Shown piece by piece: positions 15,813 through 33,705 of a stretch of 64,000 nt of DNA (position 1 is the stretch's first letter; every line of letters starts with the position of its first letter). Below the pieces are notes generated by a model. It saw only the letters and a program-made list of their open reading frames with translations, was not told the DNA's origin and did not search any database. The translations under genes and the position numbers were made by a program. This stretch comes from an uncultured Pseudomonadota bacterium (GTDB taxonomy: Bacteria; Pseudomonadota; Alphaproteobacteria; Rs-D84): NCBI GenBank assembly GCA_947307295.1, contig CAMZIQ010000002.1:8447-72446 (forward strand), in the 5' to 3' direction.

Positions 15813-15950
15813 TTTTCATCCCTTGTTTTTCACATTGGGATGTATTACAGCACACTTTATATGAAAAATCAAATTTTTTTCCACCTTTTTAATGTTGGAA
15901 ACATATTTTCACAATAACGGCGCATTTGCTTGTTCTCGCCAACTATCGTG

Positions 15951-15977
15951 TCGGACCCTAGACCAAAGGATTATGAT
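15951..15977 (-). repeat. Partial copy of tRNA-Met, from the anticodon loop to the 5' half of the T-loop
   Basis: 25 of 27 nt are identical to 17418-17444 of the intact tRNA-Met gene, in the same orientation. Identity starts in the anticodon loop and stops in the T-loop (TCCGA). Confidence 0.8.
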
Positions 15978-16160
15978 GTATCGGACACCAAAACCGCATA
16001 ACCACGTTTTCTGCCGTATGCGTTTATAACGCAAACGATTTATATCTCACGATATCCAACCTTTCTGTTTTTGAGCTGTCCGCTGTTCTAGCACCATTAA
16101 AACTTGCATTATATAGTAAATAAATATAAAATATATCTCAGCGGTGCTAGGAGAACACAG

Positions 16161-17006
16161 ATGATAAATATAACGGAACCACAAAAACGATTATGCGATA
16201 TTGAAAATATATTTTTAACTGGTAATACCGAAATTGAAACAAAAGCCGATTTAGCAAAAATAGTAGAAGAACCTTGCTTAGCGGTTTGTGAAAATTTATA
16301 TAATAAAAACATTTTAACTTATTGGAGTTCTGCTAATAAATATGCACCCAATAGAGCATATGTATTGATTAGGTATGAAAGCCTTGATGATATCAATAAA
16401 AAAATAGCAAATGATTTGATTAAACAAGGAATTTTAAGCGATACTAAATACATATTCGATTCCTATAATAAAGCTGATGAATACGGCAAGGGTTTATATC
16501 TTGGAATTGATACAAATCCTGATATGTTTGTCAGCGACATATCTAAAAAATTATGTCAAATAGCAGATAACTTTGTACTACAAGACATAAAATATAACGT
16601 ATACACTCCTGAATATTTATTGTCTAAAGACCCTTTTACCCGAACTAAAAAAGTTTTTGCTTTCCCAGATCTTAAAACAACAATTTATGGTAAACAACAT
16701 ATAAAAGAGTCTGACAAAGAAAAAATTTATGACTATATAGAAATTATGATACACAGTAAACAAGATCTTGGTTTAACATCAGAAGATATGCGTACTATTG
16801 CAGAAAAAATTGGTTGGCTATACAATGAAGAAAACGGATTTTTATATAAAGACAATGAAACACTACGTCGACACAATGAATACATACAAAATGCTTGTGC
16901 AAATAAAATTGAAATTATAAAACAAGGGTCTAACAAAGTCATATCATTATTTGAAAAAAATACACCTGTAAATAATGTACAGAAAACATGTTCCAGACAA
17001 AGTTAA
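16161..17006 (+). CDS. Hypothetical protein (281 aa) inside the tRNA-Met-associated islet
   Basis: ATG preceded by an AGGAG RBS. No motif recognised. The track ORF starts at TTG 16104. Confidence 0.55.
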   Translation: MINITEPQKRLCDIENIFLTGNTEIETKADLAKIVEEPCLAVCENLYNKNILTYWSSANKYAPNRAYVLIRYESLDDINKKIANDLIKQGILSDTKYIFDSYNKADEYGKGLYLGIDTNPDMFVSDISKKLCQIADNFVLQDIKYNVYTPEYLLSKDPFTRTKKVFAFPDLKTTIYGKQHIKESDKEKIYDYIEIMIHSKQDLGLTSEDMRTIAEKIGWLYNEENGFLYKDNETLRRHNEYIQNACANKIEIIKQGSNKVISLFEKNTPVNNVQKTCSRQS

Positions 17007-17120
17007 TTTGTTTTACTAACTATTAAAATTCATGTAAACACCTGTGTATCCGTTGTGTAGAAAATTTGAAAGAATTTGATATTTCTGTCCATTTTTTAGA
17101 TTTTTTATTTCGTGACTATA

Positions 17121-17228
17121 TGGCGAAGGGATTGTTTCGCTTCGCTTCACTCCCTTGCAAAATCCACCTTCGTTAAAACTTCGGTGGACCGGCGCTGTTC
17201 CGCCTTTTTGCTGTGGGTCGGACCCCTG
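17121..17228 (-). repeat. tRNA-Met 3'-end pseudo-copy with its T-loop interrupted by an approximately 85-nt G+C-rich insert
   Basis: Minus strand reads CAGGGGTCCGA, then the insert, then AATCCCTTCGCCA. The flanks are 11/11 and 12/12 identical to the T arm and acceptor 3' strand of tRNA-Met. Confidence 0.7.
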
Positions 17229-17241
17229 TGCCGGTGTCCAA

Positions 17242-17334
17242 CGCGGCGAAGGATTCGCTCGGCATAAATGCCTACGCGGCAACCGTGACGATTTTGGTAC
17301 GTTTCACTTCCAAAATCTACTTGTTGTCGGACCC
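17242..17334 (-). repeat. Second T-loop-interrupted tRNA-Met 3'-end pseudo-copy, with an approximately 70-nt insert
   Basis: Minus strand reads GGGTCCGA, then the insert, then CGAATCC-TTCGCCGC. The right flank is 15/16 identical to the tRNA. This unit is more diverged than 17121-17228. Confidence 0.55.
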
Positions 17335-17360
17335 GGGGTCCTCATCCGTCGTCACTAAAC

Positions 17361-17388
17361 CAAAATAAAAAACGACCACAATGGTCGT
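17361..17388 (-). terminator. Rho-independent terminator after tRNA-Met
   Basis: Hairpin ACGACCA-N3-TGGTCGT followed on the minus strand by TTTTTTATTTT. A weaker T-run is also present on the plus strand. Confidence 0.75.
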
Positions 17389-17397
17389 TTGTTATTT

Positions 17398-17472
17398 TGG
17401 TAGCGGCGAAGGGATTCGGACCCCTGACCAAAGGATTATGATTCCTCTGCTCTACCACTGAGCTACGCCGCC
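17398..17472 (-). tRNA. tRNA-Met (anticodon CAU; elongator-type, could also be a lysidine-modified tRNA-Ile2)
   Basis: Cloverleaf: acceptor GGCGGCG/CGCCGCT, D arm GCTC-AGTGGTA-GAGC, anticodon arm GAGGA-ATCATAA-TCCTT, T arm AGGGG-TCCGAAT-CCCTT, encoded CCA. Positions 1:72 are paired, so it is not an initiator. Confidence 0.85.
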
Positions 17473-17629
17473 AGACTAGGCAACATTATACAGTAAGTTT
17501 TAAGAAATGCAAGAAAAACAATAAAATACCAATATAATAAATAATTTCTCGGGCTTACGCCCAGGGTATCATGCTGGAATAATAAAAAATTCCGGGATAC
17601 TTTCCCGGAATTTTATTTACAAATCAATC

Positions 17630-31919: not shown

Positions 31920-31996
<77 letters not shown>

Positions 31997-32005
31997 GTTA
32001 AATGA

Positions 32006-32033
32006 AAATCGCACTATTTTTGGTGCGATTTTT
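32006..32033 (+). terminator. Terminator after tRNA-fMet
   Basis: Hairpin ATCGCAC-N8-GTGCGAT followed by a T-run. Confidence 0.7.
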
Positions 32034-32175
32034 ATTTAATTTGTTCTGGGATTATTGGTTTGAAGCGTATGATGCATGTTTCCATAAAATGTATCGTTAT
32101 GTTCCCCCAGTAGATGATGTTGTTTTTGTCCACATAATGTAATTATTTATATGTTGTTATTTTTTATAATATTAA

Positions 32176-32664
32176 TCAGTGGTTTTCTGTTTCTGCTTCA
32201 ATCAATTCATCAATAGCTTTAATTTTATTTTCTAAATTTAATATTTTCTTTTCCAAAGAAGATGTATCTTTTGATTTTACATATTTAGCCACATCTGCGG
32301 GTATATTTTTTAATTTATTCTTTTCTTGTTCAACTTCTTTGCGTTGTTTTATTAATTCATCTTCTGTTTTTACTTTTAAATCATGAAGAAAAGCAATTCT
32401 TTCTGTTTTTTTAAGGTTTATATATTTTTCATTGTTTACAATTTCTATTTTGAATGGTTTAGTCTTCGCTTCTTTTGCTTTTTTAGCAGCCGATTCTTTT
32501 GCATTCTTAAATATATTAACTAGTATATATATGATATAAAAAACCAATCCAAATATTACCCATCCAAACGCCCTATGAATTGTCTGAGAAGAAGGTTGAT
32601 ACTCTCCACTAATAACCGCTATCCCAAACGAAGCAATAAATAAGGCTAATAATATTTGTTTCAT
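32176..32664 (-). CDS. Hypothetical membrane protein (162 aa; 2 TM plus a Lys/Glu coiled coil)
   Basis: ORF inside the tRNA-fMet islet. No motif recognised. Confidence 0.5.
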   Translation of the reverse strand: MKQILLALFIASFGIAVISGEYQPSSQTIHRAFGWVIFGLVFYIIYILVNIFKNAKESAAKKAKEAKTKPFKIEIVNNEKYINLKKTERIAFLHDLKVKTEDELIKQRKEVEQEKNKLKNIPADVAKYVKSKDTSSLEKKILNLENKIKAIDELIEAETENH

Positions 32665-32687
32665 TTATTATACTCCTATGATTAATC

Positions 32688-33386
32688 TTAAAAACCAGGT
32701 ACTACTATTTTGAATTTACTATATTCTTCTCTAACCGCTTCATCTGCAGAATCTTCTATCATTTTGCAATAATCCTTTCTTGTGAAATTAAGTATACCAT
32801 CTTGTGCAGCTAATCTTTTTACAGACTGATAATCATCTTCTATTTGTTTATGAAAGGTTTGTATTACATTTGGGTTTGATATTATTGATGTTTCTAAAGT
32901 CTTTGCACCAGATGAACCAAACGCATTATTTAATATATTTACTGCTTTTGTTTTTTTCTCTTTAAACATTGAATCAAATTTTCTTTTTAAATTGTTAACA
33001 GGGTAATACTGAGAACAATATTTAACTATTTTATAGTCATTAGAAATTATAAAACCATACGCCTTTGATGCTTGTCGAACCAACTCAGAATTCTGTTTTG
33101 CATAATTTTTGTTTGAAGAAGATACATCTGATAAATTTTCCATTTGTTTAGTAGAAGCAGAAATATTATTGATATTATACTGCCGTTTTTCACCTGTTAT
33201 GTTATCTTCAACTTTTACTTGTAGTATATCACCATGCGAAGAAGCTTCATATTTTGCATAAAGTGTATCTGTAGAATATTGGCTATGATTTGAATTTTCC
33301 GAAGTTAAAAAAATCGATATAATAACAAGAGCAACTAAACAAAGTATAAGTTTCCCTAACAAACCGATAAAATTATTTTTTTCCAT
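32688..33386 (-). CDS. Hypothetical membrane-anchored protein (232 aa)
   Basis: N-terminal TM anchor. Lies inside the tRNA-fMet islet. No motif recognised. Confidence 0.5.
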   Translation of the reverse strand: MEKNNFIGLLGKLILCLVALVIISIFLTSENSNHSQYSTDTLYAKYEASSHGDILQVKVEDNITGEKRQYNINNISASTKQMENLSDVSSSNKNYAKQNSELVRQASKAYGFIISNDYKIVKYCSQYYPVNNLKRKFDSMFKEKKTKAVNILNNAFGSSGAKTLETSIISNPNVIQTFHKQIEDDYQSVKRLAAQDGILNFTRKDYCKMIEDSADEAVREEYSKFKIVVPGF

Positions 33387-33587
33387 TTTTTACCTATTAA
33401 CTACTAAAGGCATTGTGTCACAGACTGATAGTTTATTCAACATTTTTTTCCTAATTGATTAATAATGAATTAATTATTATAAAACATTTTACATTTGTCT
33501 AAAAACACGATAAATTTAAAAAGTGCCAAGCAAAGAGTCAGGCATTTCAATGTTTTTAGTCTAAAATTGTCTCAAAAAAGGCAGTTT

Positions 33588-33705
33588 TCATAACCTGAAG
33601 GTCGGTGGTTCAGTGCAAGGATTAGGCGGGTGGAAACACGCCGGTTTGCCAAAGGCAAAAATCCGCAGACAATGAAGCAAAGCGAAATAAATCCATCTCC
33701 CGCAA
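33588..33705 (+). repeat. Displaced tRNA-fMet 3'-half (anticodon loop to acceptor end) with a 77-nt insert in the T-loop
   Basis: 33588-33612 is identical (25/25) to 31953-31977, and 33690-33705 is identical (16/16) to 31978-31993. They are separated by a G+C-rich insert at 33613-33689. Confidence 0.85.

Follow-up and report, generated by a model that had tools for sequence, protein, structure and literature searches.

The minus strand of a 64,000-nucleotide (nt) stretch of contig CAMZIQ010000002.1 from an uncultured alphaproteobacterium (hereafter the window) carries an intact tRNA-Met gene followed by a G+C-rich block that holds two tandem, split pseudo-copies of the 3' end of that tRNA. 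The initial annotation had placed these two units at 17334-17242 and 17228-17121, and both are indeed present there. Their flanks match tRNA-Met at 8/8, 15/16 (with a 1-nt deletion), 11/11 and 12/12 positions, as it had counted, and the break lies inside the T-loop both times, in each case directly after A58, i.e. between positions 58 and 59. It had missed the left part of each unit, which is a hairpin or an inverted copy of the T-arm. Below, we refer to the inserts as modules and to the tRNA-derived sequence around them as frames, and use R1 and R2 for the covariance models of the type-1 and type-2 modules, respectively. Read along the minus strand, the locus is laid out as follows:

17398..17472, minus: intact tRNA-Met (CAT) gene, the anchor of the array (ARAGORN; Rfam tRNA, 66.4 bits)
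17370..17390, minus: T1, the intrinsic terminator of tRNA-Met
17327..17361, minus: EL1, the left frame of unit 1 (GGTTTAGTGACGACGGATGAGGACCCC + GGGTCCGA)
17334-17327, minus: GGGTCCGA, the flank before the unit 1 insert
17255..17326, minus: M1, the unit 1 insert, a type-1 module of 72 nt (R1, 97.2 bits, and covariation)
17243..17254, minus: decayed copy 1 of tRNA-Met from position 59 on, ATCC-TTCGCCGC (= ATCCTTCGCCGC)
17218..17242, minus: EL2', the truncated left frame of unit 2 (GTTGGACACCGGCA + CAGGGGTCCGA)
17228-17218, minus: CAGGGGTCCGA, the flank before the unit 2 insert
17133..17217, minus: M2, the unit 2 insert, a type-2 module of 85 nt (R2, 90.3 bits, and predicted folds)
17121..17132, minus: decayed copy 2 of tRNA-Met from position 59 on, ATCCCTTCGCC + A (= ATCCCTTCGCCA)

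The T-arm of tRNA-Met, CAGGGGTCCGAATCCCTT, is unusual in having TCC in its T-loop. The similarity of the flanks to it withstands a test of significance: GGGTCCGA is found four times in the 64-kb window against an expectation of 0.27, with 0/100 shuffles reaching four, and all four occurrences lie on the minus strand from 15951 to 17423 and contain this TCC T-loop. EL1 has a GGACC/GGTCC stem, and its 3' end is the copied 5' strand of the T-stem along with the T-loop up to A58. M1 is composed, in order, of CAACAAGTAG, hairpin 1, CGTCACGGTTGCC, CGC-GTAG, hairpin 2 and CGAG-GCG-A; the decayed copy behind it bears the above-mentioned deletion and stops short of TACCA. The full-length counterpart of EL2' in the sister genomes G007, G002 and G001 begins with GGGATT, the start of the inverted T-arm copy. 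In M2, a CCC-ACA-GCAAAA stem encloses hairpin A (GGCG/CGCC) and hairpin B (TCCACC/GGTGGA) and is followed by the tail AGTGAAGCGAAGCGAAACA. The tRNA-Met gene together with T1 is 96-99% identical to its counterparts in G012, G007 and G002.

The block has a G+C content of 0.52, as against 0.25-0.30 around it. None of the four open reading frames (ORFs) across it has a Pfam match, and a coding sequence was accordingly rejected. The same holds for a known RNA family, such as a permuted transfer-messenger RNA (tmRNA): Rfam finds only three tRNAs at the gathering threshold, with nothing credible in the block at E<=10 over 17000-17500, and ARAGORN predicts no tmRNA in the block, the tmRNA of the genome being located elsewhere, on contig C9.

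Module families behind tRNA genes

When the insert of unit 1 was searched against the host genome (G000; 1.1 Mb, 36% G+C) with nhmmer and R1, we recovered 19-20 copies, nearly every one of which is 56-90 nt downstream of a same-strand tRNA gene. R1 is positive in 22/24 sister genomes, with 1-29 copies in each. Beyond the genus, weak matches are seen in one other genus of the order, and across a class-wide sample of 401 genomes from 307 genera, the matches are confined to the genus itself apart from a single weak one. The type-1 pattern further has at least 120 matches in metagenome contigs; our metagenome counts rest on 80 loci among the matches listed, which hold 95 modules. A same-strand tRNA gene lies within 400 nt upstream of 133/172 type-1 modules (65/91 in genomes and 68/81 in metagenome contigs); of the others, five show another geometry and 34 are without a nearby tRNA. 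At least 22 tRNA species precede type-1 modules.

The segment 3' of a type-1 module is the local tRNA's own T-loop-to-CCA sequence, from G57/A58 onwards, with identity over 20/20 nt for Lys(ttt), Pro(cgg) and Arg(tct) and over 21/21 nt for Ser(gct). In about 17 cases its end coincides exactly with CCA; in others it continues through the terminator. The junction always comes after TTCGA, TCCGA or TTCAA, and there is no target duplication. In its bare outline this is the anatomy of a guide-RNA-like element, wherein the module would be a scaffold and the next 18-20 nt a guide matching the neighbouring tRNA gene, as in the omega-RNAs of TnpB or the homing guides of CRISPR-associated transposons: the scaffold is followed by a segment identical to a nearby target, a constant TTCGA precedes the target, and the units lie at the short distance from it given above. 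We hold this to be very improbable, as the absence of TnpB/Cas12f-like domains (PF07282) from all 25 genomes of the genus and the lack of any linked protein gene largely refute it. Moreover, the putative guide segments decay, and some modules have no tRNA segment behind them at all.

Such modules away from tRNAs are illustrated by a site of the host genome outside the window (C2:175050-177400), where three type-1 modules, each behind a CCCCT..AGGGG hairpin, flank a gene for a secreted protein and a PemK-like gene. Two of them lead into GAATAC and an A+T-rich palindromic segment of about 80 nt (GAGAATACACAATTAGAAAAATTTTCAAAAATTGAAG...TTATTGCGTATCGAGG); the third is truncated, yet near a similar A+T-rich segment. 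This site is a second, non-tRNA junction context for the type-1 module.

Each of the two units has a hairpin-forming T-loop insert, as initially proposed, but the two inserts are not copies of each other: the type-2 family is unrelated to the type-1 family. R2 has 47 matches in 18/24 sister genomes and none outside the genus. Type-2 modules sit behind the Met, fMet, His, Ser, Val, Pro, Lys and Arg tRNAs, always at the 58|59 junction, and in metagenome variants of the tRNA-Met locus M2 is deleted to varying extents. At other loci, this T-loop position is taken by a third type, M3, or by a variant, M1b.

The type-1 consensus comprises a CAAC/GTTG stem around hairpin 1 and an NNN/N'N'N' stem around an internal loop (GCAG/CGAG) and hairpin 2. 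Of the cells in an alignment of 84 type-1 sequences to R1, 94.4% show standard pairing, as against 74.6% in column shuffles and 23-43% with slid partners, and 17/21 base pairs show both-sided (compensatory) changes. The three insert stems that had been named at the outset exist and correspond to covarying hairpins. Hairpins are sometimes even replaced wholesale with the stems kept, as between the M1 of G000 and that of G007, in which the basal stem, too, changes from CGC/GCG to CAC/GTG. Type 2 likewise shows compensatory changes in its two hairpins, and its enclosing stem covaries (GCAAAA/TTTTGC versus GGATT/AATCC). As G-T pairs (132) far exceed A-C pairs (14) in type 1, the fold belongs to the tRNA-sense strand, which fits either RNA or single-stranded DNA. 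The GAUGAG...stem...CGA arrangement brings a hammerhead ribozyme to mind; this was rejected, as the equivalent of A14 is mostly C and base-paired (column 11 with column 60), the junction has four helices and there is no Rfam hammerhead match at E<=10.

Strong covariation and a fold specific to the tRNA-sense strand are also what would be expected of a functional structured RNA or cis-element, with frame and module together specifying a tRNA-like RNA, either as a gene or by read-through. The helix of this RNA would possibly mimic the acceptor and T-arm, end in CCA and bear interchangeable arms, and it could act as a decoy, a processing signal or a regulator of the cognate tRNA. The constant position and orientation behind the cognate tRNA speak for it, as do the many 3' copies that finish exactly at CCA with the terminator next, the left frames that pair with 10-12 nt of the T-stem and acceptor 3' strand in some units (L071, Lys and His), and the M1 module that is intact at tRNA-Met in every M1-carrying variant examined. 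We nevertheless consider it rather unlikely on several grounds. The sole terminator found is that of the tRNA itself and precedes the units, and a consensus scan of the window found no promoter-like site for them. The 3' tRNA copies decay, the sister species carry anywhere from 0 to 29 copies per genome, with none in three of them, and unrelated module families replace one another in one frame. Modules are also found away from tRNAs, at cassette junctions, and the pairing of the left frame with the acceptor strand is weakly tRNA-specific for type 1.

Frames, module exchange and tRNA-anchored arrays

Upstream of every module, the left part of the frame ends in the 5' strand of the T-stem and TTCGA. 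For type 1 it consists of a generic GGAYGAGAAC(C), an optional hairpin and then GGTTCGA, and its pairing with the 3' copy shows the weak tRNA-specificity just mentioned (p=0.001 and p=0.02). For type 2 it is an inverted copy of the cognate T-arm, with 12.5/17 matches to the cognate versus 9.9/17 to non-cognate tRNAs (p=2e-7). In one case the match extends to 17/17 positions. A short loop comes after the inverted copy; therefore, the single strand can fold into a hairpin. As predicted from these sequences, the stem of the type-2 frame hairpin can reproduce the T-arm duplex of the tRNA gene, with the module as a branch. The 3' tRNA copies are subject to decay: the window shows the 1-nt deletion and truncations, and their counterparts read ATCCCGAGTCGC in G012 and ATCCCTTGTGCTGC in G002.

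Frames without a module are also found. Uninterrupted repeats of the tRNA 3' half occur behind Ala, Val and Ser tRNAs; in the host genome (C3:120180-120545, duplicated on C4), two exact tandem repeats of 106 nt stand behind tRNA-Ala(tgc), and in each an unbroken 29-nt copy of the T-arm and 3' end is joined to the terminator, which makes it an 'empty' frame. In the same assembly the tRNA loci Ser-tga, Leu-caa, Ala-tgc and Ser-gct are each present twice with identical sequence, on contigs C3/C4 and C8/C11, which suggests assembly redundancy or a strain mixture in this metagenome-assembled genome (MAG; 4.2% contamination). The tRNA terminators across the genus (e.g. at loci L034, L020 and L017) have a common layout, RAAATTMAAAC-hairpin-TTTTAATTTTTG, and different versions (T1-T4) combine with one and the same frame from genome to genome, as though terminators were exchanged independently of frames.

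Modules are likewise found in changing company. Head-to-tail pairs from different subfamilies abut with no tRNA sequence between them (L071, L054), and in one genome the same module pair lies behind both Pro(cgg) and Arg(cct), although the left frames of these two loci share no sequence relationship (L063, L064). At the orthologous tRNA-Met loci of five genomes, EL1 is conserved at 80-92%; its occupant is M1 in G000, G012 and G007, M1b in G009 and M3 in G001. The order of the units is type 1 and then type 2 in G000 and G012, the reverse in G007, and G002 has type 2 alone; five further arrangements are seen in metagenome contigs and in the rumen MAG. The M1 of the window is 88.9% identical to its Lys(ttt) paralogue in G000 versus 79.5% and 79.7% to its positional orthologues, in genomes whose adjacent tRNA and terminator are 99% identical. 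Finally, tRNA types are intermixed in a tree built from 86 modules, which clusters partially by genome. Taken together, the tandems, shared pairs, frame swaps, paralogue identity and tree indicate that modules are copied or exchanged among loci within a lineage in an ongoing manner. With regard to the order of insertion at tRNA-Met, no single model of cassette boundaries fits all the terminator/frame combinations of six genomes and five metagenome variants.

These patterns bear on the possibility that the units are ordinary attachment (att) scars, each being the attR of a degenerate, integrase-less mini-island resembling a cis-mobilizable element (CIME), with the module as an immobile attP arm beside the crossover site of a tRNA-specific tyrosine integrase. 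Direct repeats of the tRNA 3' end do bound the arrays, the intact tRNA comes first, the repeats behind the Ala, Val and Ser tRNAs are of the classical unbroken kind, and the host genome has four non-Xer integrase genes, one of them adjoining tRNA-Gln(ttg). Yet, a single module family serves at least 22 tRNAs, the sequence on either side of the insert matching the local tRNA each time, and the 5' part of the T-arm upstream of the module is not expected of a simple attR. Nor would such scars account for the module tandems, for the same pair in unrelated frames, or for the exchange of module types within one orthologous frame. Arm-type sites are A+T-rich, whereas the fold here is G+C-rich, covaries and is specific to one strand, and module-rich genomes have XerC/D-like recombinases only. 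A phage source is not seen either: in the IMG/VR viral contigs the strict type-1 pattern has no match, and the 23 stretches retrieved by loose type-1 and type-2 patterns include none that scores with R1 or R2. The doubt voiced at the outset that these are plain att scars is thus borne out by discrete, conserved and covarying modules that occupy one T-loop position behind many tRNAs, stand in direct tandem and are swapped within conserved frames, and we regard the explanation as unlikely.

The units of the window are the tRNA-proximal part of a tRNA-Met-anchored island that reaches approximately 15918, just upstream of rmlD. It is hypervariable, because the gene content between tRNA-Met and rmlD differs greatly in the closest MAG, a sheep-rumen Alphaproteobacteria MAG whose RmlD is 91% identical and which is the closest named genome; there, the interval contains other genes (kinase-like, DNA-alkylation-repair-like and nitroreductase-like). 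A second island of the window is anchored by tRNA-fMet:

15918..15977, minus: distal end of the tRNA-Met island
31920-33705, plus: fMet island, 1.6 kb, anchored by tRNA-fMet (31920-31996)

At the distal end of the former, 27 nt of tRNA-Met reappear, running from the anticodon loop to A58 (ATCATAATCCTTTGGTCTAGGGTCCGA; 15977-15951, minus); this third copy is again broken after A58 and is followed by a truncated module of a third type, like M3 of G001. The fMet island ends in a 23-nt tRNA copy from the anticodon stem to A58 (33590-33612), a 77-nt type-2-like module (33613-33689) and AATCCATCTCCCGCAA (33690-33705). In this case the frame accommodates 1.5 kb of cargo, with ORFs on the opposite strand, between its start and the T-arm copy with the module; in the sister genome G020 the fMet frame holds a short hairpin only. 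Within the tRNA-Met island, an ORF of 300 aa (16104-17006, plus) lies in DNA of about 28% G+C and has no Pfam match. Behind the last unit is a conserved element, TTTTCTACACAACGGATACACAGGTGTTTACATG (17031-17066, minus), which G012, the sheep-rumen MAG RGIG6783 and one metagenome contig also have behind their tRNA-Met arrays; it may be the start or the promoter of the next cassette.

Proposed mobilisation of the modules and comparison with known systems

The interpretation that we favour, with a probability of about 0.5, is that the modules are gene-less elements mobilised in trans, which act as folded single strands and sit at 58|59 of spare T-arms in tRNA-anchored arrays. Each frame would be a spare, non-functional copy of the T-arm and 3' end of a tRNA, whose T-loop is occupied by a small non-coding module. 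The modules (72 nt for type 1 and about 85 nt for type 2) would be discrete, non-autonomous elements acting as the folded tRNA-sense strand, and a factor supplied in trans would copy or exchange them between the spare T-arms of many tRNA loci. The fold would presumably work as single-stranded DNA rather than RNA, and insertion would be enzymatic and site-specific. Real tRNA genes might be spared because insertion there is lethal and selected against, or because the extra hairpin of the frame is required. The spare T-arms were most likely left behind when small cassettes integrated at the tRNA gene, as displaced or attachment-site copies of its 3' half, with the modules as a putative second layer colonising the T-loops of the frames. 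Such an origin would explain why the intact tRNA and its terminator always come first, why distal 3'-end copies decay and why cargo genes lie inside a frame.

Several observations weigh against this interpretation. It offers no account of how tRNA-specific left frames arise at each locus, and among the loci compared there is neither an orthologous empty/filled pair of one frame nor an excised form. The intact state of M1 at every M1-carrying tRNA-Met variant would also fit a selected function. The modules do not encode an enzyme in cis, and no mobilising enzyme was found elsewhere. Clustering of 741 ORFs within 3 kb of a module at the 80 metagenome loci (0.5 Mb) yielded only housekeeping neighbours and spurious ORFs instead of a recurrent neighbour protein. 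A Y1 HUH transposase (PF01797) is found in 0/41 related genomes, with the control detecting it in 6/14 reference genomes including E. coli, and TnpB/Cas12f-like domains are lacking throughout the genus, as noted above. Reverse transcriptases occur in 11/24 genomes of the genus, the module-rich G000, G001, G002 and G020 not being among them. Small GIY-YIG nucleases are multi-copy in 16/24 genomes, but they are absent from G002, G009 and G023, which have many modules. The tyrosine recombinases (PF00589) of G020, G013, G018, G012 and G023 number only two, both XerC/XerD-like. In the 200 nt around 11 modules, no sequence resembles the dif core better than expected by chance, and the single good dif candidate in the host genome is at C10:1684 (minus; AAGGCGCATAATGTATATTATGTATAGT).

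On these grounds, we rejected as mobilisers a dedicated integrase, which shows no phyletic link with the modules; a Y1 HUH transposase or REP-associated tyrosine transposase (RAYT), none being present in the 41 genomes; a reverse transcriptase, which is patchy and missing from module-rich genomes; XerCD acting as for integrative mobile elements exploiting Xer (IMEX); and a small GIY-YIG nuclease of the Ssn kind, which is neither linked to the modules nor universal and whose motif is unmatched (see below). The mobilising factor may be a core host enzyme, an enzyme encoded on unbinned DNA, or one that was lost from most genomes.

The starting point of the tRNA segment could alternatively be read as the trace of an RNA-templated origin, in which a reverse transcriptase begins copying at the 3' end of the tRNA or pre-tRNA, halts at position 58 of the T-loop and switches to a module RNA, the chimeric cDNA then being fixed downstream of the gene. 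In favour of this model, tRNA-primed retroelements copy an 18-nt 3' segment of the tRNA, as in retroviral primer-binding sites, and the segment that starts at position 59 is the same one. The repeats end at the mature CCA or in the T-run of the terminator, i.e. at RNA 3' ends, and the hairpin at the left end would be as expected from snap-back priming of the second strand. However, terminator ends are equally expected if terminators simply delimit cassettes, the patchy distribution of reverse transcriptases described above is at odds with the model, and module exchange and module tandems are left unexplained by it. We accordingly deem it improbable.

The favoured interpretation invites comparison with several known kinds of element, each of which resembles the modules in part; for all but the Rickettsia and mitochondrial elements, a defining feature was looked for and found lacking here. 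In CIMEs of the ICESt1/ICESt3 type and in tycheposon arrays, an intact tRNA comes first, tandem elements lie between tRNA 3'-end repeats, the distal copies decay and an integrase is often lacking. Direct tRNA 3'-end repeats bracket the DNA downstream of an intact tRNA here too. In contrast to these islands, the repeated tRNA segment is not contiguous, a conserved folded module interrupting it at 58|59; the module families are common to no fewer than 22 tRNAs and occur in tandem and exchanged arrangements; and the module-rich genomes lack integrases beyond the XerC/D-like genes.

Like the palindrome-associated transposable elements (PATEs) of the IS200/IS605 group and the repetitive extragenic palindromic (REP) sequences with their REPIN derivatives, the modules are small, gene-less, strand-specific and defined by hairpins, and they enter on the 3' side of a short fixed motif and leave no target duplication, so that repeated insertion gives head-to-tail tandems. 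M1 even has a GTAG directly 5' of hairpin 1 and a CGTC that starts one base past its 3' foot. Unlike PATEs and REP-RAYT systems, they have as their target the T-loop of a tRNA-like hairpin, their long-range stems give a branched fold rather than two independent end hairpins, and the Y1 HUH transposase is missing from the 41 related genomes.

A site set by the structure of one strand and not by sequence is shared with the attC sites of integrons, including clusters of attC sites lacking integron integrases (CALIN), and with the folded single-stranded attP of CTX-type IMEX phages. As in attC/CALIN arrays, variable hairpins are kept by compensatory change and cassettes are arrayed behind one anchor, and the inverted T-arm copy of type 2 can, as in folded attC and the CTX attP, fold back and rebuild a copy of the duplex target. 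Unlike in integrons, there is no IntI, with module-rich genomes having two tyrosine recombinases only, and no GTTRRRY core, which the junction motif GTTCGAA does not fit. Unlike in IMEX, there is no dif-like site at the modules, the one candidate of the genome lying elsewhere. The anchor, moreover, is a tRNA gene and not attI or dif. Rickettsia palindromic elements and mitochondrial GC clusters are G+C-rich hairpin mini-elements of small A+T-rich genomes, in Alphaproteobacteria or their descendants, that have no transposase of their own; they insert at many kinds of sites, often in frame within genes, whereas the modules use one nucleotide position of the T-loop.

Lastly, Ssn enzymes cut single-stranded DNA beside hairpin repeats (SRM/NTS; PMC11893778). 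The small GIY-YIG genes that are multi-copy in the 16 genomes encode single-domain proteins, and one type of them lies right behind tRNA-Leu or tRNA-Gln in similar arrays. Unlike in Ssn systems, the published SRM motif (PMC11893778) matches 0/86 modules and occurs once in the genome, where shuffles give 0-3; nor do the nuclease genes adjoin modules.

More tentatively, and with a chance that we would put below even, the several unrelated, structure-defined families (types 1, 1b, 2 and 3) might represent an undescribed class of mobile modules whose common homing site is 58|59 in the T-arm hairpins of single-stranded DNA or RNA. These would be gene-less, survive only in spare T-arms behind tRNA genes and be moved by a trans-acting factor, possibly a housekeeping enzyme that recognises T-arms, or by a chemistry intrinsic to the folded module. 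A full-text search of the literature directed at the phenomenon found no description of T-loop-specific mini-elements, and we rate the finding as lying outside the described kinds of element or RNA family, the mechanism being what we infer. If the modules are mobile as proposed, the tRNA T-loop, a universal RNA/DNA motif, would be a homing site for gene-less folded elements, and their mover would not be explained by the standard transposase, integrase, reverse transcriptase or RNA-guided families. Such an enzyme would provide a new site- and structure-specific tool for single-stranded nucleic acids. Its identification would also explain how gut and rumen Alphaproteobacteria with tiny genomes assemble hypervariable cassette islands behind single-copy tRNA genes while leaving those genes intact. 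Should the units instead prove to be RNAs, they would form a new tRNA-linked structured RNA family with swappable arms. Under either reading, these loci will confuse the annotation of tRNAs and ORFs in metagenome-assembled genomes.

Some further observations concern the small GIY-YIG genes. None of six GIY-YIG loci has a module within 1.5 kb. In the host genome, outside the window (C1:33615-34100), a gene for a single-domain GIY-YIG nuclease of 79 aa starts 108 nt downstream of tRNA-Leu(aag); a long imperfect hairpin stands before it and an A+T-rich junction repeat after it. Relatives of 81 aa lie behind tRNA-Gln(ttg) in G006 and G011, and some sister genomes of 0.9 Mb carry 5-6 copies of such genes. 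In G007 (C2:84106-85153), a 346-aa reverse transcriptase frame adjoins a 120-aa GIY-YIG frame on the same strand.

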